DNA of 64,000 nt, taken from NCBI GenBank assembly GCA_950097015.1, contig CATNEN010000002.1, forward strand, positions 7,006,001-7,070,000, given 5' to 3'. Under the pieces are notes generated by a model. That model saw nothing but the letters and a program-made list of their open reading frames with translations. It made no database searches and was not told where the DNA came from. This DNA comes from Macrostomum hystrix. Taxonomy: Eukaryota > Animalia > Platyhelminthes. Position 1 is the stretch's first letter, and each line of letters begins with the position of its first letter. The position numbers were made by a program, and so were the translations under genes. Below are positions 46,397-64,000 of the stretch, one piece after another.

Positions 46397-49300
46397 CTAC
46401 ATGATCTCCAAGCGCGATGGCGGCTGATTTCGCTGATTGACCAGAGGCGTGCCCGGCTTCCTCCGCTCCGGCTGGCCCTGCCTGCCCGCCTTGGTGAACA
46501 CGTGCTGAGAAGGCGGCATTGTGGGGGGAATGCGCGACTGTAACAATAAGACTATGTCTGAGGAAGGGCCGTCAGGCTTCTTTACTTTACTGATAAGATT
46601 CGATGAAATTTACCGCAAAGTCTCTCGAACGGGCTAATAACATCAAAGGAGAGTTACCGCCAAGTCTCTCGAACGGACTAATAACATCAAAGGAGAGTTA
46701 CCGCCAAGTCTCTCGAACGGACTAATAACATCAAAGGAGAGTTACCGCCAAGTCTCTCGAACGGACTAATAACATCAAAGGAGAGTTCCCGCCAAGTCTC
46801 TCGAACGGACTAATAACATCAAAGGAGAGTTCCCGCCAAGTCTCTCGAACGGACTAATAACATCAAAGGAGAGTTACCGCCAAGTCTCTCGACAATACTG
46901 ATTACTACTAAGTCTCTCGATTGTACTGATAAGATTAAAGGAGATTTACCGCCAAGCCTCTTGAATGTTGTGATAACATCAAAGGAGATTTACCGCCAAG
47001 CCTCTCGACTGCACTGATAAGATCAAATGAGCTTTACCGCCAAGCCGAAAATTTGGCGTTATTTTGGCGGTTTCGGCGGTAATTCTAAGATAAAAGAAAA
47101 TGGCCGCTAGGTCTCACCCGGTGCACCGTAGACTCCTTGGCCCGGTTGTAGGCCTCGAGGTCCAACGTGTGCTCGAGCTGCTGATGCTTGACCCGGTCGA
47201 ATCGGTCCAGCGGATCTTCGTAGGGCTTCGGTGGCAGAACCTCCGGCCGCACGCCCAGACCCGCCTCCAGGCTGTTGGCAGCCGGCCGCCTGTCACCGCC
47301 GCCCGCGGAACTGTCCAGGAACGATTCAGCGTACCATTTGTCGAATTCTGGAATAATAGTTCTGTTCCTTTAGTTTCCTGGCCCTCAAAAAGCGAGAGTA
47401 CTTGTGATGCCTCACCTTGGATGAGCTTCTGTCGAGTGAGATCCACCATCTTCTGGCAGTAGAGAATCTGCGTCTTCAGCTCCTTGTGCCGCTCAAAGTC
47501 GGCCTTGTAGGCGTCCTTGAGTTGGCGCAGTTTCTTAATCTCAGCGAACTCCTCCTCGTTGATGATAAGCTCGCCCTCGTCCGTGTACAGATTGCCCTGC
47601 GCCTCGCGCTCCATCTTCAGCGCGTCCAGGCGGAGTCGCGAGCGATCAATCTCCGTCTTGAGGGTGTTGACCTGGCTGGCCACGGCTGAGTACTCCTTCT
47701 TCTTCTCCACCATTGTGTCTGCGGGTTGCGGTGCAGTTCGGCTTCGTTTCATTTGTCTATGGCCCGATCCTATTCCTCCCAGGTGTTCATTTCTGCGAAC
47801 ATGCATGACGTTAGAAAACGCATGGATACCAAAACAATCAGTATTTTCCTTTTTAACTGTCTCTGGATAGATTTTAACAAAAGTAAGTACCTCCCGCACA
47901 TGTACATCACATACATGTACAGCACATACACATACATTTTCTAAGAATCGAGAAAAATTCTAGAATTGCAGTGGGGTGAGTGGCAGAGCGGTTAACGCGT
48001 TACCTCTCGTAGGCAGTCCCTGAGCTCGATTCGACGGCGAGGCCATGTTCATTCGGGGCGAAGCAGCGGGGAGAAGGCTTGCGGGCTTGTCGTGCAATTG
48101 ACGCCCTTGAGGGCCAACCTCAAAAGCACAGTGAAGTGTACACTGCCTGACGATGAGAAAGTCAGGGCAGATGTACACACACACCTGTGTGAGCGTGTGC
48201 CTGCGTACGGTCCTGTGTGCGTGTGTGCTCGGAGTCAGCGGAATGCGCAGAATTGCCTCCTCTCTGGCTGCAGGACTAGTGTCGGCAAATTGTGTGCCCG
48301 CACCTGCAGAACTATGACTCCGAGGTTTCCGGGAGTCCCAACTCACTCCTGTTCTCATTGAGAATCCTGTAGATCTCAGAGCCCAGCTCGCGTTTGAACT
48401 CCTCGAACGCCTGGGTGCGCGACGGCGGAGTTCCGGGCCGGCCGCCGCCAACAGCCTCGGAACCGGCGCCGGCCACGTCTGGCGTCCCGTCGGAGTCGGC
48501 AGCCGCGGCAGTGGCACCAGCGCCTGAAGACGAGGCACCGCCGGCGGCTCCCAGCGGATGCTGTCGGCTTTTCTTTGATGTCGCCGTTGCAGCCGCGGCA
48601 GCCTCGCGTCGCTTGCTCTGCAGAAAGACGCTGGACTCGTCCATGCCGACTTCGCTTCGAGCGGCAATGCCGAAGCTGCGCCCGTCCAAGTCGCCAACAG
48701 CGTCGCCCAGTTGAGCGCCAGAGGTCGATGGTCCGAGAGATCTGGCGGCTCCTTCAGGCGGGGTGGCGCCCACCCCCTGGCCTGCCATCAGCTCCTGGAA
48801 GCGAGTGTCGGCCTCCTCGCGGCTGGCGATGCAGAGTTCGCGGAACAGCTCGAAGACCGCCTGAATCTGGCGAATGCTCATCAGCTGCGTGCGGGAAAAT
48901 TTTTGTTGTCTGCTATTTGCTGGTGCTGTGACATTGTGGTAATGTGAAATTTCTGTATTGTGAGATTGTCGTAATGTGACATTGTGGTAATGTATAATCG
49001 TGGTAATGTGAAATTTTCTTACTACTACTCAGCTAGGCCTGTACTGTACAGAGTCCTGACCAGCAAACTGGGTCCAAACACGCTGAGTTCTACTCACATC
49101 GATTTCATCTAGGTCCCCGTCGATGTAACGCTGCACCTGCTGCCTAAGCTCAAAGCGCTGCTGCTCAGAAATAGGCTCGTAGTGAATGTGCGACTTGTTG
49201 TGCTGCAAAATATTGCGTAAAAGCTCGTTTAATTATAAAAAAATCAAATCTTGGCTTACCAACAATGTGAGAATATGCTTAAGCATGCGTACATTAAACC

Positions 49301-52300
49301 TCTGTCTTACTTACGCGGGCAAAAGACGTGAAACAAACTGTAATTAAAAATATAAATATTATGGGACTTCCCCTACTTCTTCAGGTGACTGTCAACTGCT
49401 ACCCCCAGTTCTTCAGGTCACTGTCAACTGCTACCCCCAGTTCTTCAGGTCACTGTCAACTGCTACCCCCAGTTCTTCAGGTCACTGTCAACTGCTACCC
49501 CCAGTTCTTCAGGTCACTGTCAACTGCTACCCCCAGTTCTTCAGGTCACTGTCAACTGCTACCCCCAGTTCTTCAGGTCACTGTCAACTGCTACCCCCAG
49601 TTCTTCAGGTCACTGTCAACTGCTACCCCCAGTTCTTCAGGTCACTGTCAACTGCTACCCCCAGTTCTTCAGGTCACTGTCAACTGCTACCCCCAGTTCT
49701 TCAGGTCACTGTCAACTGCTACCCCCAGTTCTTCAGGTCACTGTCAACTGCTCCCCAGTTATTCAGGTCACTGTCAACTGCTACCCCCAGTTCTTCAGGT
49801 CACTGTCAACTGCTACCCCCAGTTCTTCAGGTCACTGTCAACTGCTACCCCCAGTTCGTCAGGAAATATCCCGCTTGTTATATTTCTGTGTTCTTTATCT
49901 TCAGTTGTCAGACTAAAGCTTATTAGTGTGCAGGTCATGCTATCCGATAAGTAAATATTCTGGTGCGTTATTCACATATTTTAGTTTGTTAGACCGCATT
50001 AAACTGAGCTGAAAATGTCTCACATTAGAAAAGTAGGGGTGAAAATTTTTTACCACCAATCAGTAAACTATAAAGCAGTGAATGCATGGCAAAATGTACC
50101 TGAACTGCTAAATACGTTGCGTAAGTGATGCCGGATAAAACATTACTGAATTAAATTTAGATAGAAAATATCCAATGAAAGAAAAGAGTGGTCTAACAAA
50201 GTGTTTGAATTATCGCCAAACTAAAACAATGGCGTCTGATTTAAAACAAAAGATCGCACTTTTTCAAATAGCTCCTCGATTTTCTGGAATTGTTTTCCAC
50301 AACTTGTTAAGGCTGTAACTTAGTAAACAAAATAAAAAAGAAATAATTTTTTTACGTATAAAACAATCACGTGACCGTCTTTACCAGTGTATTGTGCATC
50401 GCCAACTCCTTCTTCAGTGCAATGATCTCCGCCTCCAGCACCTTCACCATGATCTGGCGATGCGGTTGAAAGTAACGTTAGATTCCGAAAAGCTTATCAG
50501 CAAACCTCGATCACTTCAGTATTTGGCTTGCCTATTTTCAGGCCCTGAGTTCTTCGTCATCAGTCCCTGAACTCCTTGTCCTCAGTCTCCAGGTTAAAAA
50601 TATTCAGGCTCTAGACTCAGAATCTTCAGTATCTAGCCTCAGAATCCTCAGTATCTAGCCTCAGAATCCTCAGTATCTAGCCTCAGAATCCTCAGTATCT
50701 AGCCTCAGAATCCTCAGTATCTAGCCTCAGAATCCTCAGTATCTAGCCTCAGAATCCTCAGTATCTAGCCTCAGAATCCTCAGTATCTAGCCTCAGAATC
50801 CTCAGTATCTAGCCTCAGAATCCTCAGTATCTAGCCTCAGAATCCTCAGTATCTAGCCTCAGAATCCTCAGTATCTAGCCTCAGAATCCTCAGTATCTAG
50901 CCTCAAAATCTTCAGTCTCTAGCCTCAGAATCCTCAGTCTCTAGCCTCAGAATCCTCAGTATCTAGCCTCAGAATCCTCAGTATCTAGCCTCAGAATCCT
51001 CAGTCTCTAGCCTCAGAATCCTCAGTCTCTAGCCTCAGAATCCTCAGTATCTAGCCCCAGAATCTTCAGTCTCTAGCCTCAGAATCCTCATTCTCGAGCC
51101 TCAGAATCTTCAGTCTCTAGCCTCAGAATCCTCAGTATCTAGCCTCAGAATCCTCAGTATCTAGCCTCAGAATCCTCAGTATCTAGCCTCAGAATCCTCA
51201 GTATCTAGCCTCAGAATCCTCAGTATCTAGCCTCAGAATCCTCAGTATCTAGCCTCAGAATCCTCAGTCTCTAGCCTCAGAATCCTCAGTATCTAGCCTC
51301 AGAATCCTCAGTATCTAGCCTCAGAATCCTCAGTCTCTAGCCTCAGAATCCTCAGTCTCTAGCCTCAGAATCCTCAGTATCTAGCCCCAGAATCTTCAGT
51401 CTCTAGCCTCAGAATCCTCATTCTCGAGCCTCAGAATCTTCAGTCTCTAGCCTCAGAATCCTCAGTCTCTAGCCTCAGAATCCTCAGTATCTAGCCTCAG
51501 AATCCTCAGTCTCTCCCTCATCCCGGTACACATCGGTACTCACAGTGGGATCGGTGCGTTGATTCTCCACTGGCTCGCTCGCCACACAGCTCATGCGCTG
51601 AGCGAATCGCATGGTGGACACCTGCAAATTTGGGCCATAGACATTAGTAGGCCGACAATAGTACGTCAAAGACAATGGGGCCATCGACATACTAGGCCAA
51701 CAATAGTACGTCAATGACTTGAGCACTCACTGTCTCGTCTAGTTGACGAACGTCGCCCCAGATGTTGGCGATGAGAATGGTCTTGCAGCCTCCACCGATG
51801 CTGTCCTTCAGATAGTGCGTGAGCTTGCTCTGCCTGTAGGGCACGTGTTCGCGGTTCTTCTCTGTCAGGGCGATGACAGTCTGCTCCAGGAAGGACAAGG
51901 ACTTGTTGATGTAGGACGCTTCCTGCTGGGTCTTGCCTGTGCTCATTGTCTTCTGCAGCCTCTCAGAGCCGGCCAGATCAACGAAGTTAATCTTGGACGT
52001 TGTGTACTTGGAGTTGGACTGGAAGCGGGACCGAGTCTCCAGGTAGATGGTGAAGATGGTGTGCGAGCGGGACGAGTTCTTGTTCAGAGCGTGGGCGGCC
52101 GTGGCTCGATTCGTCTCACCCTGGAATTCATTGGAAAGAGACTGCTCAGAGTTCGGACTGCTTTGAATCTAGGCGTGTTAATAATAACAACACTAATAAT
52201 TGCAGGAGGCAATTCTGCTCATTTCGCTGACTCCTGAGCACACACGCACACAGATACTGTACTCAGGCGCACGCTCACACAGGTGTGTGTACATCTGCTT

Positions 52301-53253
52301 TGACTTTCTCATCGGCAGCCAGTGTACACTTCACTGTGCCTTGGAGGTTGGCCCTCAAGGGCGTAAATTGCACGTCAAGCCCACAAGCCTTCTCTCCTCG
52401 GTTGCACCCCAAATGAATGTGGCCTCGCCGCGGAATCGAGCTCAGACCTTGGTGCGCGAGGCAAAAGCGTTAGACCGCTCTCACCCAACCTCCCATCTAG
52501 ACACGTTGTACTTCATATGCTTTTGAAGCAGTTATTGTGGTAATTTTAATATCAGAATCCAAGAAACCAAGCGCGAAAAACGCCCACCTCAAACAGAAGG
52601 TTGAGAGCTTCTTCTTCCGTCTGCGCCAGGTGCACATTCAAGCCTTTGACGTAGACTCCGCCGTTCTCTTCGGCGATGACCAGCGGGCTGGTGGCTTCCT
52701 GACTACTGGGCATTGTGCCCAGCAGGTCAAGCATTGTGTCATTGTAGATCTCCAGGTAGGTGATGCGTACAGTGATGGCCAGGTCGGTCTTATTGCCGAT
52801 CTCCTTGTACAGGTGGCTCAGCGCGCGAGGCACGAGGCCGCGATGATGGAAAATCTCCGTGACGCCGGTGATGGTGAAGGTCTTGCCAGCGCCCGTCTGG
52901 CCGTAGCACATGATGGTGCCATTGTAGCCGGCCAAGCCACTCTCGATGAGATCGGCGCCAAGGGTCTCGTAGACGTCCTGCTGCGAGGCATTGTGGAAGA
53001 TGCCATCGGTGCGGAAGACCCACTCAGTGCGCTGGTTGCTGGCAAAGCCACGCTGCTGTTGCTGCTGCTGCTGCTGTTGCTGCTGTTGCTGTTGGTCTCC
53101 GGCTCGCGGCATGCAGATCTGCAGCGACCGGCCTTCCGGGTCCAATCGGAGTACTTCGTCGGCGAAGTTCTGGCTGGGCCGGACTCGAACCCAGACCTTC
53201 ACCTTCTTGCTGCGCTTGCCGCCGCTCTTCATCGTTGCGCGCTGCGGGACCAT
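46397..53253 (-). CDS. KIF9: Kinesin-9 family motor, ~828 aa; exons 53253-52588, 52120-51731, 51621-51544, 50453-50385, 49202-49098, 48884-48347, 47718-47416, 47347-47118, 46504-46397
   Basis: KVKVWVRVRPSQNFADEVL, YGQTGAGKTFT (P-loop), YLEIYND, NKNSSRSHTIF, FVDLAGSER, INKSLSFLEQ and HVPYRQSKLTHYLKDSIGG, then VQRYIDGDLDEID and EFDKWYAESF. All eight introns are GT-AG and phase-compatible. Confidence 0.95.
46600..47045. repeat. 44-bp minisatellite (CCGCCAAGTCTCTCGAACGGACTAATAACATCAAAGGAGAGTTA)
   Basis: In the last KIF9 intron. Confidence 0.92.
47970..48295 (+). mobile_element. tRNA-derived SINE copy with intact head
   Basis: A box GTGGCAGAGCGGTTAA, B-box-like GAGCTCGATTC, head ending CCA at ~48045, then the shared body. 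Confidence 0.88.
49375..49860. repeat. 32-bp minisatellite (TTCTTCAGGTCACTGTCAACTGCTACCCCCAG)
   Basis: About 15 copies in a KIF9 intron. Confidence 0.95.
50615..51515. repeat. 22-bp minisatellite (TAGCCTCAGAATCCTCAGTATC)
   Basis: About 41 copies in a KIF9 intron. Confidence 0.95.
52180..52500 (-). mobile_element. tRNA-derived SINE copy in KIF9 intron 1
   Basis: Minus-strand head GGGTGAGAGCGGTCTAACGC...GAGCTCGATTCCGCGGCGAGGCCA, then the shared body and an ATT-rich tail. Confidence 0.88.
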
Positions 53254-55624
53254 CGGGCTGGGTCAGTTTTCTCTGGGCTGAGAATTTTGGACCCCGCCAG
53301 CTCTCTGACCTGCACCGCGCCGCGATACACTATAGCTCACTTATTAAAGCTTTTGTGCTCATAGGCATTAGATGCGATATATTTTGCTTCCTATGTATTT
53401 ACATAACAGACTAGATTTACCATAGACTATAGCTTAAAAGTCGCGTTCATTCTGCTTAAGATGTCGATTTCAAGGCAAAACAAAACGTAAGCCCACAACA
53501 CATTACTTCTGTGGTTTTATCGATCATTTAGAAACTAAGCAATTACTGCTAAAAATGTAAAATTAGGCGTTGAAAAAAACAAATATTAATGCCCATTACT
53601 ATAGTGTTAGAAAGCAAAAATGTGTTAACCAACTTCAAATATTGAACTCCTACAAACAAATAAACTCGGAGCTAATCATATAATGGCATAATCACTCGCT
53701 ACTTTGATTTTGATGCACAATATGCGAATTATATACGTACTTGATCTTAAGCAGTCATGGCGGTCAAATGGCTGCTGCAGTTAAAAGTATCAGATATTTC
53801 CCTAACTCCCAATTGGAAAAATTCCTTTGATCTAATTAAGACTAAATTAATCCAGTACAATCACAAATATATGATAGATCAACTCTAGATATTACATAGT
53901 GCTAATATAATACCATGATATAATTGTTTGTATTTTGTTTATTTATACTTTAATTTATACCTTAAATTTTAAGGTATTAGGCCTATATATCTAAAAACGT
54001 AAAAACAACACCTCCACAGGCAGGATAATAGAAAGCTTTAGAATATTTCCACCACAAATTTATATAAAATACAAGTAAGCAAAACTATAGTAAAGTGCTA
54101 TTCTTATTATTTCAATACATACACTGATAGTATAGAATCGCTGTTTATCGATAAAAAAAGAATTAATAGATTTTTCATATTTAGAAATTTCACTAACAAC
54201 TTTTAGTCATAGCGAGAAATTACTAGCTTAGAAATTGTATATAACAAAAAAGTGAAAAAAAAGTGATTTTTTGCTTGTGTTTGACTCTTTGATGGAATAA
54301 AAACAATTTTATATCCAAAGTTTGAGCGAATTATTCAAGCTAATACTAAGAAAAATTGATACAAGGCTTCATTCACCTTATTTTTATCTTTACACGCAGA
54401 AAGAAAGGTGAACAGCACCTTATTTTACGATTTACGCAGTAACTATGGCTTCAATGGCATAAACAAAATTGGCTTAAAACAAAACATATATTTGTGTTTT
54501 GTATATTTTTTGAACAAAAACTAGTTTTTTTACTATATTTTGCTATAAAGACTTAAAATACAAACACAGGTAAAATCGTTACGACTAAATTTCCTAATAC
54601 GTGTATATTAGCGATAAGCTTACGAATTGTGTGCTCACTACGCGATCTCCTTTTCGAATTTATCGCTTTTATCGATTCAAATATTATCCACAATATCCGA
54701 AACTATTAAAATACTCCTCACATACCTTTCTAATTCATGCGCCAAAATATGTCAAATGGACCCGAATCTGTACACGTATTTTTATTAAGCTTAACTTCAT
54801 TGTTAATGTGATTTAAATAAAAAACAGTTTTAGATAGGCTTTTCTAATGCATTTCATGCCCAGTGAGGGCTCCATTAGCAATTTAATTGATTGCGTCAGA
54901 GCCAGTTTTGCGAGCGTACTAATAAGAGGCCACCCGTAGGGTGGGGAAAGGCAGCTAATAGTAGCTTTCTAATGATACAGCTTAATCTTCCTATAGGACC
55001 TGTTGCAAAAATTAATGTTTACCTTACAATACAATTAGCACGTGTATTACTTTCATAGTACGTATTTCTAAACGCACCTTCATGGATCGCGACGGACGAA
55101 TCACTTGGTGATATTGACTCATGTGTGAAAGAACGTGAATGATCGATAGTTTGTTACATAGTTTCTTTTATACATTATCAATAATAACAATAATTTTAAT
55201 AATGGTAATGAGGTAAAGTCCATCCCTTTTCCACCTTTTCTTGCCATCCAGACTAGCTTTGAGACTTATAAGACAACCCTGACTTAGCATAGCTCTTCTT
55301 GTCAGACAGGACTGTTAAATCCCAAACTCTGATCGAGAGAACTCATATCAACAATTTGAGCAACCGCTTCGACTTGACCGGCAGACCCGATCCTTAGCCT
55401 TGAGCTCCGGTTCCAGCCTTCGGAGACTCATCTAAGATAAGTGGGACTATACTCTTGTTATCTATAATTAATATCTTTGCGTGATCCAACATCCATGTGC
55501 AGTGTATATGACAACATCGCTGATTGCGAAATAAAATATCTAAGTTGAAGGGTAAAACATCAAGGAAAACCGTCGACCAGACCTCCTGTCTCCTTATTCA
55601 ATAATAGGAAAGATAACCGGATCC

Positions 55625-55990
55625 TTAGTCCTAGACATATTCCTAGACCTAGACCTATATTAGACCTAGACCTATTCCTAGACCTAGACCTATAGACCTA
55701 GACCTATTCCTAGACCTAGACCTATAGACCTAGACCTATTCCTAGACCTAGACCTATAGACCTAGACCTATTCCTAGACCTATTCCTAGACCTATTCCAA
55801 ACCTATTCCAAGACCTATTCCTAGACCTACCTACACCTATTCCTAGGCCTAGACCTAGACCTATTCTTAGACCTATTCCTAGACCTAGACCTAGACTAGA
55901 CCTAGACCTATTCCTATTCAAAGACCTTTTCCTAGACCTATTCCTAGATCTAGACCTATTCCTAGACCTATTTAGACCTATTCCTAGACA
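55625..55990. repeat. Hexamer array of CCTAGA and CCTATT units
   Basis: Read directly. Often arranged as CCTAGA-CCTAGA-CCTATT. Confidence 0.92.
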
Positions 55991-56084
55991 TATTTTCCTC
56001 GCTCGCACTCACTCTCTCTATTGAAATTGCAATAGCGGCAATTCAGCCCGGCTGTGTAGTCTATGGTTTTTTATATAGCAATTC

Positions 56085-56305
56085 TTATGCAGCAAAAGAG
56101 CCCGGCCGAGTCCCCTATGCTTTCTTATGCAGCAAAAGAGCCCGGCCGAGTCCCCTATGCTTTCTTATGCAGCAAAAGAGCCCGACTCAATCCTTAATGC
56201 TTTCTTATGCAGCAAAAGAGCCCGACTCAACCCTTAATGCTTTCTTATGCAGCAAAAGAGCCCGACTCAACCCTTAATGCTTTCTTATGCAGCAAAAGAG
56301 CCCGG
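56085..56305. repeat. 40-bp minisatellite (ATGCAGCAAAAGAGCCCGGCCGAGTCCCCTATGCTTTCTT)
   Basis: About 5.5 copies in two variants. Confidence 0.92.
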
Positions 56306-56680
56306 GACCCGCTTTGCTATAATTCTAAATTGATTACTACTGATAGCAATTGTTGCAGTGTTAGGTGCGAGATCGGTTGGCTGATTGAATACATATACCA
56401 GTCATGATAATTTTGTTTCAAATGGCGCAGTTGTGACAGCAGCGGAATGCAGTTCGAACATTCTATGAAATGGGTTTCATGCAGGGTATTATCTTACGTT
56501 ACATGATGACTGCAGCCCCATGCCACTGCCCGCACCTGAGTTAGGGACCCATTTCGCACTGTGATGATCGATCGAAATTTTTCCAATATACTGTGGGATA
56601 TATAGTGACTATAGCGGTATTAGCTAGTGTTAGACGCGTTGCTGCTGCACTCACGACATTGTTGGGTGCGTAGAACCACG

Positions 56681-57100
56681 ATGAATGCTCATCCTGTGGC
56701 GCTGTTCGGCTCGCCGGCCATCGTGGCACTCCTGGCCAGATGCGACATCGCCTGCCTGGCCCCGTTCCTGGCGCACCGAGGACGACTGGAGCAGCTGACC
56801 TGCCTGCAGCGCCACTGCCCGAATGCTGAGCTGAATGCCACCCAGCTACACACCTTGCTGAAGAGCCTCCTGGACTGGCTGCTACAACACCAGACAGCTG
56901 CGGGCTACGAGACTATCCTGGAGGTGACCTGCCTAACAGAGAACGAGGCTTTCGACTTGGCCGAGCTGCTAGGCCTGCTGGAGGACACCTGTTCGGAGCT
57001 GCAGCACATTCTACACGGGCTGGACTACTGGCGCGGCGTGCAGCAAAGGGCAAGACTGCGAGAGTTGTTCCGGAGTCGCGAATATCGAATGGAGCAGTAG
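56681..57100 (+). CDS. 139-aa helical protein, possible CARD/death-fold
   Basis: GC-rich ORF in AT-rich DNA with host-like codon use and AATAAA at 57176-57181. Hydrophobic pattern ALLARCDIACLAPFLAHRGRL...SLLDWLL...GYETIL...DLAELL resembles CARD helices, by eye only. Confidence 0.6.
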   Translation: MNAHPVALFGSPAIVALLARCDIACLAPFLAHRGRLEQLTCLQRHCPNAELNATQLHTLLKSLLDWLLQHQTAAGYETILEVTCLTENEAFDLAELLGLLEDTCSELQHILHGLDYWRGVQQRARLRELFRSREYRMEQ

Positions 57101-57254: not shown

Positions 57255-57387
57255 AGTACAGTTCGTGGTGCGCGCACAATCCCTAAGAAATATATACATA
57301 AGACGATGCGAGGTGCTTATCTACCTAAAAATAGCAGGCAAGTCCTTATATATTTTTAAGTAATGTGCGCGCACTATGAACTGTACT
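57255..57387. other. Inverted-repeat module A
   Basis: Left arm AGTACAGTTCGTGGTGCGCGCAC pairs with right arm GTGCGCGCACTATGAACTGTACT (two G-T mismatches). The inner TATATA-containing segments pair partially. Confidence 0.9.
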
Positions 57388-57482: not shown

Positions 57483-57520
57483 AGATCAATATGCGCGCAC
57501 ATGTGCGCGCATATTGATCT
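57483..57520. other. Perfect 38-bp palindrome A
   Basis: AGATCAATATGCGCGCACA|TGTGCGCGCATATTGATCT. Confidence 0.97.
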
Positions 57521-57739
57521 ACTAGAAGTAGTAGTAACACTGGTACTATCTGCTGCTCATCCTAAATAGCCTGCTCCTCCTCCTTGGGACGTACTTGGGA
57601 CTCTATTATTAATAGCGAATCCCACCCTGTTGCACCCAGTTGAAGTTGAGTACCTGGGACTGCGTTGGCTTTCTGCAGCCTGCTCATTTTCATACATCCA
57701 AATTTGAACGCGCCTATAATTAACCTGCGGAAGCACAGA

Positions 57740-60535
57740 ATGTCGTTCAACTTTTCAACCGGCTACGACAGCGACGATGAGCGAATTGCGGCCGCGCTGG
57801 ACGAGTTTGAGAGAGTTGCCCAAGATAGTAACTCCGCCGGGCCGGTAGCGTCATCAACTCGCCAGCCACCATCACAGCGAAAAAGAAAGAGCGCTCCCTC
57901 TCAACGTCAGATTGTCAATGCAGCAGCCGCAGAATCTACGCCAGGCCCAAAGCGTATATATACTTTCACCCCAGTGCAGACAGCAGCGGTGGCTAACATC
58001 AGCAGCGACGCCGACGACTTCAGCCTGCTGCCATTGAGCGGTGTCATGCGCCTAAACACTGGAGAGCAGCAGCCTGCCAGTGACCAGATGTCCACAGGCA
58101 ATCAGCAGCCACCGCCTGCCAGTATATCGGCCGTCTACGCGCCCATCTCCCACGCGATGGCAGCCTCAGCCTCGACTGCGCCAAAAGGGAGCATGCTGGC
58201 TTGGCTCGGAGATCAGCACCGGAGTGCCAAGAAGGCCACCAGCAGATGGTCATCGCCGGCAGCGATCAGGCACGTCAGGCGACATGCTCCTGCCAACTGC
58301 GGCGATGGCGACGGGGCGGCGTCTGATGCGCCCGACATGTCCACGGCAGCCCTACAGCCTCGCAGCCCCGTCGTCATCGAGATTGAGGACGTCGACGACG
58401 AGCGCGCCGATAACGGCAGGCCGACAGCGGCAACTCGCACAAAGGCGGAGCCATCGGAGCCTAACGAGCAGGAGGCGGCGATGGATAGCGACGACCGCGA
58501 TGCTCTGCAGGCACTGCTGGACTACGAGGCGTCCACCGTTGCGCTGTCAGTCGCTGCAGATCCCCCACCGTCGGGCGCTGATGCGGAAATGGAGGAGGCC
58601 GCCAGCACGGTGCCGAAACCGCCTCAAGTCGCGGCCGACCAACAACAGCAGCCAGGGAGGCGGAGATTCCGTTTCCAGCGGCTCGAAACGACTGCTCCCG
58701 CTGTTGCTGCTGCTGCCGACTGCTCCATTGTGGGCGCCATGGTGCCAGACTCGCAGCCCGATGGCCGACGATTAGCAGTCGCCAAGACCACACCGTCTCA
58801 GCGTCCGGAAGATGAGACGACGGCCTACGTGGTGTCGCCTGGCACAGCGGCATTCGCAGCAGCCGTGGTGGCCGCTATGAATGAGGCCAGCCAGTCCGTC
58901 CCTGTCGGCGAGGAGTGGTGGCGCATATTAACACCACAGCCGCTGCAGCAACAAGAGCAGGTGCAGCTCGAGCGTCCTCCCTCGCTGGTGCCCTTCAGCT
59001 ACAGTCCGCCGGCGTCTGCGGCACAGCTTATTCACTTCCTCCAGCAACAGCAGGGGGACAGCGAGGCGAGCGGGAGCGGGGTCGGCGGCGCCAGAGGACA
59101 ACGAGGCGGCCGAGGGGTGCGACGGCTGGGCCAAAATCCGCTGCTTAATGCGGCAGCAGCACAGCAGCAGTTCACTGTGACGCGCTCAGTCAGCCGGCCG
59201 CTCGCAATGACCGGTGCTGCTCCTGCGGAGCGACTGCCCGAGGACAGCGGCATTCTGACCGGGCGCCGCTATTTGCACGTCTTCCACATCGACAAGGTGC
59301 GCTTCGTCGGTGAGTCACTTGCTTTGTTCATAAGCTCTGAATCATATAACCAGCTGCTGGCATCCACTGTTTCCATGCTGCCTACATAAACAGGTCGTGC
59401 CAAAGTATATCTGGGCGAGGCTCTGGAGGCACACTGTGTCGAGCTCGTCCTGGCGTCCAGCCCGGGCCTCTGCGTCGGCATGGATGAGTTCTGCGACCGG
59501 CGGCTAGTCGCTGACCCGCTCTCCGTCGACGAGATGGAGCAACAGCAGCAGCAGCAGCAGCAGCACAGCGAGTATCGGCCACACCGCACTCTGTCCGGCT
59601 TCGTGCGCCTGGAGACCAACGCGGCCGGCTGGCATTTGTACGAGCTGCTGTTCAGCCTGCTGCCTAGCCGAGACGAGGGACGCTGCTTTGTGGTGCCCGA
59701 CCGGACCACCCTGACGCTGTGCGGCGTCCGCTCGCCAGACAGTGTGCTGCGGAGCCTGACGCAGCACGACGGCTACCCGCTGCTGATCGGGATCGGCGCC
59801 ACGCAGTGCAGCATGCTGGTGCAAGCGACTCGGTGGGCGCTGTCCTACCCGCTGACTGCCAACCTGCCCGACCAGACTGACGGCTTCTTGTTGGCCCACC
59901 AGCAGATGCGCGCCACGTTGCTGGGGGTCTTTAGAGACGTGCAGCGCCAGCGCCGGATTCGCAGGGAGCAGCTCGCCGGCTGTTCCGCATGTTCCACCGA
60001 GGCTGCCGACATTAGGAACCTGTGCCCGCTCCGAGAGGCCGTCTGCACAGCCCTTCGCCACCAGTCGGGCGTTGTGTACCTTTACGGGCCGTCGGGAGTC
60101 GGCAAGACCACCGCCGTCGAGCGCCACCTGGGCCAGGAGCGCGTCTTCTGTCCGGTCATCAAGCGCTTCGGTGGCAATGACTTCATGTTCGACGGCCTGG
60201 ACACCGCGCGCCACTCCGTCATCTTTCTGGACGAGGTGCGGCCGCACATGTTCGAGGGCGGCGACCTGGAGACCACGCTGTTGCGCCTGCTGAACGGCAA
60301 CAGCTTCCTGGTCAATGCGAAGCACCAGGCGCACGTCTACCTGGACTGGGGCCAACGGCTGGTGATCATGGCCGGCCACGCCTCACCTGACGACTACCCG
60401 GCTGACGTGCAGCGGCGCCTGCGCAACGAGGGCAACACGTGCGTCGAGGTCGACCACGACATCGAGGCCTGCCAGGGGGGGTGCCGCCAGCAGCCAATGT
60501 TCGGAGCCGCCGCCGCCAACGCCCAGGTTGAATGA
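57740..60535 (+). CDS. Spliced Rep-like protein, ~903 aa (exons 57740-59309, 59394-60535): disordered N-terminus, degenerate HUH-like region, SF3 helicase
   Basis: An 84-nt GTGAGT...AAACAG phase-1 intron removes the in-frame TAA and joins the 574-aa and 351-aa ORFs. Walker A GPSGVGKT (60086-60109), FMFDGL..HSVIFLDE (Walker B, 60221-60235), LLRLLNG..VNAK (B'), RLVIMAGH (motif C region) and arginine finger QRRL. Confidence 0.85.
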
Positions 60536-62008
60536 GGCCGCCTTTATATGTCTGTCTGTCTGTCTGTCTATTGCTAAATTATTTCATCCCTGCGCCCGTA
60601 TTTTGTCTCCACCACCATCTTAAAGCGGGTTAGCAGATGTGGGCAGGCAGAAATAGCTAGACGGCCAAAATATTACATAACAAAATATTAGTCCTTATTG
60701 GGCTAAATAAGGAATGGCTTTTGGGTTCGGCTGTTTAACAGCACCATATATTATAATCTATACCTGGCACGCAGTTGCAGAAAACGGGGTAGCAGAAATG
60801 TGCGCGGACTATAGCAATTTATAAAGCATTAGATGGGATTAGTTTAATTGAATTAAATAGCGCGCAGTGTTTTCCTAGTGTTTTTGTTGCTCGTCAGTCT
60901 AGATGTGCTAAGAGATGGAGATGGCATTTATTACTTGTTCTCAGGATCGCTTCTCGCTCTTATCTGATTGCTTTTATTTTGAGTTCTATTATTTCAGAGT
61001 CAATATTTTCATTTAGCATATGTCGCAGGCTGTCGACAATTTCAATTGTCCCCATTTTATTGCCGTTCTACTTTTTCTGTACCGGCTCCATTAAACTTTT
61101 TAATCCCTCACCGCCAACAAATAGTTGTTGTTGTTGTTGCTGTTGCTGCTCTCCAACAAGTTAGATAGATGGGCAGCTAGAATAATTAACAATGATTGCC
61201 TACCTTGTGGAGCGCAGATAAAAATCACTTTAAACGCAGTCGTCGTCGTTGGGGTCGCAGCTGGAGCGGAGCAATCGGAACAGTGTAGGGGGCAGTCGAA
61301 ACGAAATAGTAGATCACGAAGGAGCTGATTTGGTTGATTAATAGAGTTGGTATTGAAAATCAAAGTGTAGCTTGGGAACGATCGAGTCTGTCTTAATCGA
61401 TTGGCATAGAGAAATCAATCAGTGCGCGAGCTAGCTCTCTTTGACTTGTGTGCTCAAGATGAGCAATACAGTCCTTCCTGATAAAATTTAGTTTCTATGT
61501 GCCTAAGCTTTGTCTATGTCTTGAGTTTATCGCATTCCTTTATTAATAGTAGTCTAAAAATAATTTTACACACACGCAGTTGTTATGTGCTTATTTGGGC
61601 GCTATTTGTGTTATTATAATTTATAATAATTGAGCTATAATAATTTGAGCAAGTATACTAGTATATGGTATGAAAAGCTGACTGCATGCATTAATGTGTG
61701 AATAAAGGACATAAATCAAGAAAAAGCATTCGATCAAGAACTACATGTAGACGGTACGTATGGATATGAAAAAAACTAATTTAAGATGAGAATCAACAAG
61801 TGGCATCTGCAACAACAAGCAATTAAAATACATGTAGTAATGTGTGCATTAAAATACAATTTGGATGGACGCAAAAAGCTATACATATAATATAGTACGA
61901 TTTAATAACGGCAATTAACAGCTGCATATAGTGCTACTCAGTTATTTATAGATTTTATATGAAAAACTAAAATTTCAAATTCGCGCTAAATTCTACGAAA
62001 TTCAATGT

Positions 62009-62125
62009 GTACAGTCTGTAGTGCGCGCACATTCCCTAAAAAATATATAAGGCATGTCAGCTCTAATTTTAGAACGACGATCCTTATATATTTTTTAAGT
62101 ATTGTGCGCGCACTATGAACTGTAC
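62009..62125. other. Inverted-repeat module B
   Basis: 44-nt arms (62009-62052 and 62082-62125) with 6 mismatches around a 29-nt loop. The right arm is almost identical to that of module A. Confidence 0.92.
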
Positions 62126-62332
62126 CTAAATCTAAAATTAAATTGCTTACTTGACTACTATAAGTAGAGCAGTTAGCAGCATTTGTTTAATAATTGTCAG
62201 ATAAATCTATGGCTAATTAAATAATTCTATCAACAAAAACAATAAAGTATAATATTATCAACGGGAGTAATCAGTCAATCAATACAATCAATATTCTTAA
62301 CTATAGCATATAATATCAATTATAATAACATT

Positions 62333-62370
62333 AGCGTATAAAGCGCGCACATGTGCGCGCTTTATACGCT
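62333..62370. other. Perfect 38-bp palindrome B
   Basis: AGCGTATAAAGCGCGCACA|TGTGCGCGCTTTATACGCT. Confidence 0.97.
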
Positions 62371-62600
62371 GCAGTAACATGCAGTCAAACGAATTCAATT
62401 ATCCCTCCCTCGAAGGCCTGTGCATGTTTTCTCTGCGTGTTTTCTCTCTGTCCCGGCCCCCTTTATCTGCCCCACGGTGTTTTTCACTCACTATTTAAAT
62501 ATTTAATAATATTTTATATTATTAATATAATATAAATTAAATATTTTATATAAAATCTTAAATAAAGCAGGCAGACAGACAGGCGGGCAGGCAGGGCGAA

Positions 62601-64000
62601 TCAATCAAAATTATGCTCCGCCACTGAGTGCAGCCGCCGTCGCTTTCCGGCCACCGGTCTACCGTGCAGGACTGCGTCGGCTCGTTGGGTGCTCGCCGCC
62701 ACCTCCCCACTTCCACCAGCCAGGCTGCTGATGAGTCCCTGGGTCGGCGGCCTAACTATTGGTCGCATCTCTGCGTCACCTGATGGCACCACAAACCGGC
62801 GGACAATATCGCGGCTGCGAATTACTGTGCCCATCTCGGTGGCCATCTGGGCATTGTGCCCATAATTGTACCGGATGACAGCTGCAGATGTGCCGTGCGC
62901 TCTGGCGAACATATCCAGCTGCTCCGGCTCCATCATGAGCACTACGGCACAGAGGGTGCGACGCCAGTGCGTGGCCACATAGTGCCGACCCAGTACTCGC
63001 TGCCCGCCTGCGCTGATCATGCGGCTCATTGCCGACTGGCTGTACACACCGCCGAACACATCAATGAAGACGGTCGGCGACTCCGGTTGCTCGATGCCGC
63101 GAGCAGCAAGCGACGGCACGATATATTCGTCGTGCAGGCGCAGCAAGGCCTCGCAGAATATATCCGGCAGCACCATCCTGGCTGGGTCGCCGGAGTGTCC
63201 GACCTTGTGCGGCACTTCACGCAGCGGCAGGACGAGATGCGAGTGCCCAGCCAGATCGGCAGCGGACGGCCCGCTCCCCCCATCTGCACTTTGCGTGTGT
63301 TGGCGGAACAGCTGTTTTTGGTCGGCCGACGCGTTTCGCCGAACCGAACGGTCGACCAGGTGTCGCCGTCTCAAGTATATCCACGGCAGAAGTCGCAGTG
63401 CCTGCTCGACGCTGCAGTAGAAAAGCATCTCCTGCACTATCCGCCGCAGACATCCGGCGACTGAAGGCGCCATCATCTGCTTCGCCGTTGTCTTTAGTGT
63501 CATCAGCGATGCCATCAGCGACCACACCTGCTGCCTGCATGCCCCATTCGCCGTCGACTGGCAGTGAAGACCAGCTGTGTCTTTGGAGCATGATGAAAAA
63601 GCGGTCTCGACGGGCGAACACGGCATCAACCTCGTCTACGTTGACGTAGGTGTTCATAAATGCCACCTGCCGCTCATTGTGGCCAAGCTTGTAGACGGCC
63701 TGCATAGTATAAATGTGGTTGCGTTTACTTCTAGTAGATAGCAGCACGAAACCAAATAGAACTAACTGTCATTAATGCAGCTGCTGTGCAGCTATAGCCT
63801 ACCTGCTGTATGGCTCGGACATTGCCGAACTCGCCACGAGCCTGCTGCACCACGCTGCTAAGGCGGGCGATGAGAGCCTGCTCAGCCGCCAGCGGGTTGT
63901 TGGCCTTCTGCGCCAACTGCATTCTCCAGCAGACGCCACTGCCGACAGAGTCGACGTCCTCAATAGCAGGGCGCTCGGTGTCAGGCGAGGGTGAGTCGAT
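62601..64000 (-). CDS. Tyrosine recombinase (phage-integrase family), spliced and 5'-incomplete; exons >64000-63803, 63699-63528, 63460-62601
   Basis: Catalytic-order motifs: IYLRRRHL (first Arg, ~63370), PHKV (Lys, 63206), VFIDVFGGVYSQSAMSRMI, THWRRT (HxxR, 62969-62958) and ARAHGTSAAVIRYNYGH (Tyr, 62864). Intron 63802-63700 (GTAGGC...ATGCAG) is well supported. Intron 63527-63461 (GTGTGG...CTTCAG) restores the frame but has a weaker donor. Confidence 0.82.

Follow-up and report, generated by a model that had tools for sequence, protein, structure and literature searches.

Two perfect 38-bp palindromes in a DNA element of Macrostomum hystrix as possible hairpin-forming sites of a predicted recombinase

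A stretch of 64,000 nucleotides from the flatworm Macrostomum hystrix (contig CATNEN010000002.1 of assembly GCA_950097015.1, forward-strand positions 7,006,001 to 7,070,000), here called the window, carries at its right end a DNA element, likely a mobile one, that extends from about 55.4 kb to past 64 kb. The right boundary of the element lies outside the window, and 8.6 kb of it are visible. This part contains an imperfect hairpin module, H1 (57255..57387); a perfect palindrome, palindrome 1 (57483..57520); a Rep-like gene on the plus strand with a superfamily 3 (SF3)-type helicase (57740..60535); a second imperfect hairpin module, H2 (62009..62125); another perfect palindrome, palindrome 2 (62333..62370); and, 230 bp from the latter, a probable tyrosine-recombinase-fold gene with its main frame at 62601..63629 on the minus strand. 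The hairpin modules and the palindromes have no strand. The window is eukaryotic; it holds, at 48-53 kb, a kinesin gene split by introns, along with other host genes.

A scan of the 64 kb for perfect palindromes returned both palindromes at the coordinates given by an earlier interpretation of the letters (the sequence-only reading), each 38 bp long and with an 18-bp core common to both. After these two, perfect palindromes in the window reach at most 20 bp. When the window was simulated with a local order-3 Markov model, the maximum ranged from 14 to 24 bp, with a length of at most 24 bp in 100 of 100 simulations. Symmetry was confirmed to break at exactly 38 bp, the two base pairs immediately outside being non-complementary at both palindromes. 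Six of the ten outer positions differ between palindrome 1 and palindrome 2, and each of these six differences is mirrored on the opposite arm. Based on local composition, the probability of 10 extra pairs past the core is about 1.8e-6 per palindrome. The claim of the sequence-only reading that the arms differ and are fully compensated was borne out in this respect, but the arms are not unrelated, as both start with AG like the four arms of the hairpin modules. Its observation that symmetry was kept despite sequence change is real, and it requires selection or templated copying.

Both palindromes were traced in public short-read contigs. Palindrome 1 is flanked on both sides in contigs of run X4, which stop at 57512 and start at 57491; palindrome 2 is flanked on both sides in contigs of run X1, which stop at 62362 and start at 62341. 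In both cases the breaks lie 30 nt inside the palindrome, counted from either side. When a 38-bp palindrome is attached to both flanks, this is where a 31-mer graph has to break, and such a graph is blind to the difference between read-through and fold-back molecules. The breaks at 30 nt from each flank therefore indicate that the palindromes are no assembly fold-backs. Palindromes are recognised trouble spots for assemblers, and the sequence-only reading had itself named fold-back artefacts as the finding that would speak against it. Yet with both flanks attached in short-read contigs and a simulated maximum of 24 bp, an origin by artefact or chance is largely refuted and scarcely credible: both 38-bp palindromes are real and far beyond chance. 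No variant inside palindrome 2 is among those listed for the deep run X1. Its central unitig has a depth of about 688 versus 315 and 396 in the flanks, values which read-through and fold-back molecules fit equally. In the low-depth runs X2, X3 and X4, contigs end at 62366, which is where palindrome 2 would fold back, and no contig covers the sequence directly to the right; such a contig hole proves nothing and was not used.

Judged by its sequence, the building unit of the palindromes is a 19-bp half-site, AG-N8-GCGCGCACA, two of which placed head to head make up a 38-bp palindrome with the self-complementary hexamer ACATGT at its centre. Palindrome 2 follows the plan of palindrome 1 with another middle. 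Since each palindrome consists of two 19-bp half-sites, both stop at exactly 38 bp. All eight exact copies of GCGCGCACA reside in the arms of H1, H2, palindrome 1 and palindrome 2 (two arms each); host DNA from 30 to 55300 contains no exact copy and nine copies with up to one mismatch. In all eight copies AG is found at positions -10/-9 before the core, and the symmetry of the palindromes ends at that A. The probability that both palindromes carry AG at the offset seen in the hairpin arms is about 0.004. The sequence-only reading had placed the palindromes roughly 100-200 bp downstream of hairpin modules, which agrees with the measured distances of 95 bp (H1 to palindrome 1) and 207 bp (H2 to palindrome 2), and had rightly noted that they reuse a motif of these modules; the common half-site, i.e., the 19-bp unit itself, had been overlooked.

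H1 comprises two inverted half-sites with cores 85 bp apart; its loop is long, and internal mismatches directly adjoin the cores on their inner side. In H2 the cores are 71 bp apart, the mismatches are placed as in H1, and the loop is shorter. Both modules fold far better than shuffled sequences on both strands (z of about -6 for H1 and about -11 for H2), and their fold-back stems with conserved unpaired positions and a variable terminal loop are of the kind found in attC and CTX attP sites. Together with the palindromes they form two hairpin-plus-palindrome units which are directly repeated 4.75-4.85 kb apart. Comparison of the 10-mers showed two and three differing positions within the hairpins and none within the palindromes, versus six between the palindromes. 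The asymmetry of the hairpin arms therefore argues that binding alone tolerates asymmetry, and that copying, or strong selection acting on the stem, is required for the palindrome arms to be perfect. A lone degenerate half-site with one core mismatch and without AG is located on the minus strand at 60799..60817, about 260 bp past the stop codon of the helicase.

A role of H1 and H2 as precursors of microRNAs was unsupported, as the 11 Rfam matches obtained for 55-64 kb with E values up to 1 were all under the gathering score. The core motif was present at six loci in viral contigs (five with the 18-bp core only, one extending to 24 bp), all in GC-rich contexts, and these were rejected as chance matches. 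A single locus in metagenomes matched the half-site pattern; it is a palindrome of imperfect symmetry within GC-rich, unrelated DNA. Two related imperfect palindromes, which are REP-like, occupy intergenic positions on a bacterial contig rich in GC (L154:753-790 and approximately 815-850). In addition, a separate contig with a depth of about 70 (runs X1 and X6) contains a decayed look-alike of the right arm of H2 (62069-62181) with unrelated flanks, which may be a chance match or a relic.

The Rep-like gene, whose start codon is 219 bp from palindrome 1, consists of a low-complexity N-terminal exon (57740-59309), a predicted in-phase GT-AG intron (59310-59393) and an exon (59394-60535) encoding the SF3-type P-loop helicase. 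Walker A and B motifs are present in the latter exon, as in the SF3 helicases of CRESS and parvovirus Reps. In Pfam it matched AAA (E 3e-5) and, below the cut-off, RNA_helicase (E 2e-3), and its Atlas neighbours are CRESS-type Reps (0.92-0.95). The sole relative with E ≤ 0.001 among 7,998 scored candidates is a hypothetical protein of Macrostomum lignano with 70% identity; no related loci were found in viral contigs. HUH-like motifs were seen by eye upstream of the helicase with catalytic residues that look substituted, including those of motifs II and III, and Pfam gave no match in this gene to a Rep nuclease domain, Viral_Rep and Gemini_AL1 included.

The main frame of the recombinase-like gene is accompanied by more 5' coding pieces in other frames up to the end of the window. 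A predicted intron covers 63731-63802, and in this copy the frame is interrupted at about 63.4-63.75 kb by an intron or a frameshift. The protein had no match in Pfam, NCBIfam, PHROG or PDB sequences; two word-based searches yielded no homologs with E ≤ 0.001, phage and plasmid records contained nothing useful, and no related loci were found in metagenomes. The top Atlas cluster (0.93, 130 shared features) has PF00589 on 17% of its members, which is a lead. Four relatives were retrieved with HMMER from 1.84 billion representatives, all on JGI/IMG and ENA contigs of 0.6-2.4 kb. The two Arg of an HxxR-like motif (xxRR), a Thr-Ser and a Tyr-Gly are invariant in all five sequences, and the rows that extend far enough also conserve an Arg situated earlier, plus a Lys; by eye, the spacing is the one expected for the active site of a tyrosine recombinase. 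In terms of the R-K-HxxR-H/W-Y set, likewise assigned by eye, the first His is variable and the second is replaced by Thr. A structural model based on the five sequences was poor (pLDDT 47; single-sequence model, 35). When this weak model was compared with the PDB using Foldseek, XerA ranked first and fourth and XerH sixth (E 1.6-3.5; best 1.6), and among viral folds FirrV-1-B4 ranked first (E 0.048), a homolog of the phaeovirus integrase EsV-1-213 according to PMC2373305. In VIA-align, XerA gave the longest alignment among the 50 rows listed (134 residues; Z 4.7, root-mean-square deviation 4.9), its Z being tied with that of small helix-turn-helix domains. The gene thus probably encodes an orphan protein with a tyrosine-recombinase fold, as suggested by three weak, concordant leads, none of which is significant.

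Phage telRL sites, the targets of TelN-type protelomerases, served as a control. N15 and 64 telN loci were considered; 25 of the 64 had the site and 40 nt on both sides, which resulted in 20 distinct sites (13 read-through, 7 long fold-backs). Four of the 13 read-through sites are perfect 54-bp palindromes which all break at position 28 and have a fixed core and outer motif combined with four different, fully compensated middles. The remaining nine read-through sites have 12-50 perfect bp. By analogy, natural telRL sites can show the plan of the palindromes described here, though not always, and the phages concerned are related and do not represent independent cases. Viral contigs L023, L031, L034, L039, L049, L060 and L071 have long perfect fold-backs at telRL, which are probably replicated hairpin-telomere junctions or assembly read-arounds. 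According to PMC3558466, protelomerases cut 6 bp apart and need a self-complementary overhang, TCATGA in the case of TelA; ordinary tyrosine recombinase sites are described in PMC3212892 as arms flanking a 6-8 bp spacer. Like protelomerase targets, the two palindromes have a self-complementary 6-bp centre, a conserved core, a compensated variable middle and a fixed length, the comparison resting on two sites only.

We tentatively favour the possibility that the palindromes are hairpin-forming cut-and-reseal sites of the predicted recombinase-fold enzyme of the element. They may work like telRL sites, and they are not filed as members of the telRL family. The recombinase-fold enzyme, or a resolvase encoded beyond the window, would cut both strands across ACATGT with a 6-bp stagger and reseal them to hairpin ends. 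The SF3 helicase would then unwind hairpin-capped linear intermediates and serve the replication of closed linear pieces. Passage through the hairpin state could copy arm onto arm, whereby each site would stay perfect and the two sites would drift apart. In the most speculative step, H1 and H2 would serve that enzyme as fold-back sites in single-stranded DNA, similar to attC or CTX attP, in integration or excision. Counted in support were the confinement of the half-site to four structures, the self-complementary central hexamer, the telRL control, the recombinase-like neighbour gene and the phaeovirus precedent. The latter refers to integrated Ectocarpus phaeoviruses, which according to PMC13236599 contain an internal telRL-like palindrome at which long reads fold back. 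The hairpin telomere proposed in the sequence-only reading accordingly gains from the common plan of telRL sites and from this precedent, but loses from the weak assignment of the enzyme and its failure to match the TelN profile.

Several observations weigh against hairpin formation by this enzyme. The TelN profile (56 sequences) did not match the recombinase-like protein, nor did a two-sequence integrase profile; none of its fold matches reached E 0.001 or Z 8, and its nearest folds are integrases. Telomere resolvases are absent from the fold-search rows listed, which with this model excludes nothing. In TelA and ResT the residue at position -3 from the second catalytic Arg is Tyr (PMC3558466), whereas the five sequences, with the motif assigned by eye, have His, Asp, Asp, Asp and Thr there. 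Two resolution sites would cut the element apart, and N15 and the phaeovirus endogenous viral element (EVE) have one. Cutting and re-fusing hairpins alone gives no account of arm homogenisation. DNA past the end of the window may encode a separate resolvase or further genes. Finally, the G of AG in palindrome 2 is changed in one low-depth X4 contig (2.05), possibly by error.

The most direct account of perfect symmetry and equal length is terminal resolution by a rolling-hairpin Rep, which would nick 19 nt from the hairpin tip, just before AG; copying-out would then produce a perfect 38-bp palindrome at both ends of the 4,888-bp Rep-carrying segment 57483-62370. The Rep indeed resembles CRESS Reps, the segment is of parvovirus size, and by eye both inner boundaries read A-N-T followed by AG. 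At the left boundary of palindrome 2, positions 62326-62334 agree in seven of nine positions with the geminivirus nonanucleotide, with the nick position at the palindrome edge, a weak match in AT-rich DNA. The mechanism, however, needs an active HUH domain, and the apparent substitutions in motifs II and III and the missing Viral_Rep and Gemini_AL1 matches described above speak against one. Moreover, a long open reading frame (ORF) of capsid size is absent at 60.5-62.3 kb, H1 lies outside the segment and H2 inside despite the common half-site, and X1 contig depth is high on either side of both palindromes. Rep resolution is considered somewhat unlikely. The nature of the enzyme, with Xer and phaeovirus integrases as nearest folds, is best matched if the palindromes are ordinary duplex recombination sites that serve the excision, inversion or resolution of the 4.85-kb helicase module, with cruciform or template-switch correction keeping their arms perfect. 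The order repeat, SF3 helicase, repeat, recombinase resembles the end modules of polinton-like viruses (PLVs), with their inverted repeats, and mobile helicases flanked by repeats (PMC11296320), and the direct repetition of the two hairpin-plus-palindrome units is in line with such a role. Perfect arms are, however, unnecessary for binding, as the hairpin arms differing at two and three of the same 10 positions illustrate. A symmetric spacer would leave recombination directionless, as is known from the study of Cre/Flp-type sites, and no joints skipping or inverting the segment are listed in four runs. Ordinary recombination sites are regarded as unlikely.

A function as duplex origin or regulator sites would involve inverted binding sites that load the helicase, as known for papillomavirus E1 and polyomavirus T antigen, or that bind a host GCGC-binding factor, and which were perfected by quasi-palindrome correction. 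The apparently nuclease-dead Rep, the position of palindrome 1 ahead of the Rep start codon and the AT-rich surroundings of the palindromes are consistent with it. It would not account for perfect symmetry over an unconserved middle, nor for the fact that long fold-back stems employ the half-site again, and 55.3 kb of host DNA with numerous promoters contain no exact core; we consider this explanation very unlikely. Taken together, the readings make it highly probable that the palindromes are cis-acting sites for the element's own enzymes.

Comparison with known systems revealed partial likeness in each case. Sites of the N15-like telRL type (TelN/TelK; TelA) share the fixed-length perfect palindrome, the conserved core and outer motif, the compensated variable middle and the self-complementary central hexamer; they differ in that telRL measures 54-56 bp, occurs as one site and precedes the enzyme gene, whereas the two 38-bp sites here are found in an animal host and the site follows a gene whose product does not match the TelN profile. 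Phaeovirus EVEs, as reported in PMC13236599, are likewise integrated in a eukaryotic genome; they possess spliceosomal introns, a palindrome in their interior and a tyrosine recombinase, to which the predicted introns, the palindromes and the probable recombinase gene of the element correspond, and the best viral fold match of the element is a phaeovirus integrase homolog. Unlike the element with its CRESS-like helicase, they are described there as giant viruses that have a capsid and, separately, a resolvase; neither a resolvase nor a capsid gene was seen in the part of the element visible within the window. PLV end modules and mobile SF3 helicases also combine clustered inverted repeats, an SF3 helicase and a tyrosine recombinase, and their repeats have been proposed to act both as origin and as recombination substrate, yet the helicases are D5-like primase-helicases and the repeats terminal (PMC11296320), in contrast to the CRESS-like helicase, internal repeats and perfect palindromes described here.

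H1 and H2 resemble integron attC, a single-strand fold-back site (PMC8946536), and CTX attP, whose two inverted sites are separated by about 90 bp (PMC3089051), in that two inverted sites at a distance of 70-90 nt form a stem that carries mismatches at conserved internal places and ends in a variable loop; the known sites are bacterial, and the likeness is one of structure. Cryptons are eukaryotic DNA elements with a tyrosine recombinase, but in the available text of PMC3212892 they are described with 4-6 bp terminal direct repeats and without mention of a helicase, palindrome or hairpin. CRESS-DNA viruses, the planarian parvovirus-like PEVE/PIVE and Replitrons were compared for their Rep-type proteins, an SF3 helicase being the common trait and hairpins being general Rep recognition sites. 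The element differs from them by HUH motifs that look degenerate, by the lack of a visible capsid gene in the window and by the linked recombinase, and from Replitrons also by its helicase, as these are presented without one in PMC10288648.

Contig depth suggests that the element is likely present in several copies accompanied by diverged relatives. In run X1, which may stem from the sample that yielded the window, contig depth rises from 69-84 outside to 315-611 from about 55.4 kb to the end of the window and stays high to the left and right of each palindrome. Seven element contigs exceed two flank contigs, picked from tables, by a depth ratio of 3.8-8.8, which is not equivalent to copy number. 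X1 contigs on 54-64 kb number 314, and 140 of them are less than 95% alike. The left boundary of the multi-copy part is inferred to lie at 55370..55400 (no strand), where a contig of the flank in X1, with a depth of 83.5, stops at 55398, greater depth follows, and an X5 contig starts at 55372. Single-copy-depth X1 contigs at 59390-60462 and 62403-62642 represent diverged relatives of the element, one of them missing 739 bp of the helicase exon.

Between the left boundary and H1, subterminal tandem arrays without strand extend over 55626..56304, comprising a TAGACC-type array with a 6-bp period (55626-55970) and an array with a 40-bp unit (56082-56304). The TAGACC-type hexamer array, traceable at 55626-55989 near the left end, bears a faint likeness to a variant telomere repeat. 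Telomere repeats are where endogenous nimaviruses that have tyrosine recombinases insert according to PMC10871703, but the array here belongs to the multi-copy part. The arrays are followed by ORF A on the plus strand (56627..57100; 157 aa, first ATG at 56681), which ends 155 bp before H1 and has no Pfam family. Directly outside the left end, 54730-54870 is a very high-copy short repeat with an X1 bin depth of about 30,000 and many loose ends. In the host DNA, kinesin-like coding pieces on the plus strand (47114-48361) face a KIF9-like gene on the minus strand. Translations of about 48.1-48.3 kb and 52.2-52.5 kb (52200-52526) look alike on opposite strands, suggesting by eye an inverted duplicate, and minisatellites with periods of 16-44 bp fill many host introns between 5500 and 51500.

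No published description of this element was found in a search outside of which lay Repbase itself and most subscription journals. The same holds for hairpin-telomere resolution, or an element combining a Rep helicase with a tyrosine recombinase, in flatworms. The combination is not described in the available texts on Replitrons (PMC10288648), single-stranded DNA virus-like transposons (PMC3198968), nimavirus recombinases (PMC10871703), Repbase classes (PMC5753468), Cryptons (PMC3212892) and TelA (PMC3558466). Even under the rival explanations the element seems undescribed, with two near-orphan proteins and one half-site that occurs both in perfect palindromes and in attC-like fold-backs. A more far-reaching proposal, which we consider improbable, is that of an undescribed class of animal DNA elements with a phage-like life cycle, in which a CRESS-derived helicase would be combined with one orphan tyrosine-recombinase-fold enzyme that uses one 19-bp half-site in two ways: head-to-head half-sites would seal hairpin telomeres on linear extrachromosomal segments, and single-strand fold-backs would integrate or excise gene modules in attC style. 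Hairpin-telomere resolution is known in bacteria, phages and algal giant viruses. If it also applies to the element described here, covalently closed linear DNA would be produced by an element of an animal genome, an unusual replication mode for such an element, and the enzyme and its palindrome would constitute a new enzyme-target pair that could be assayed on a 38-bp substrate.

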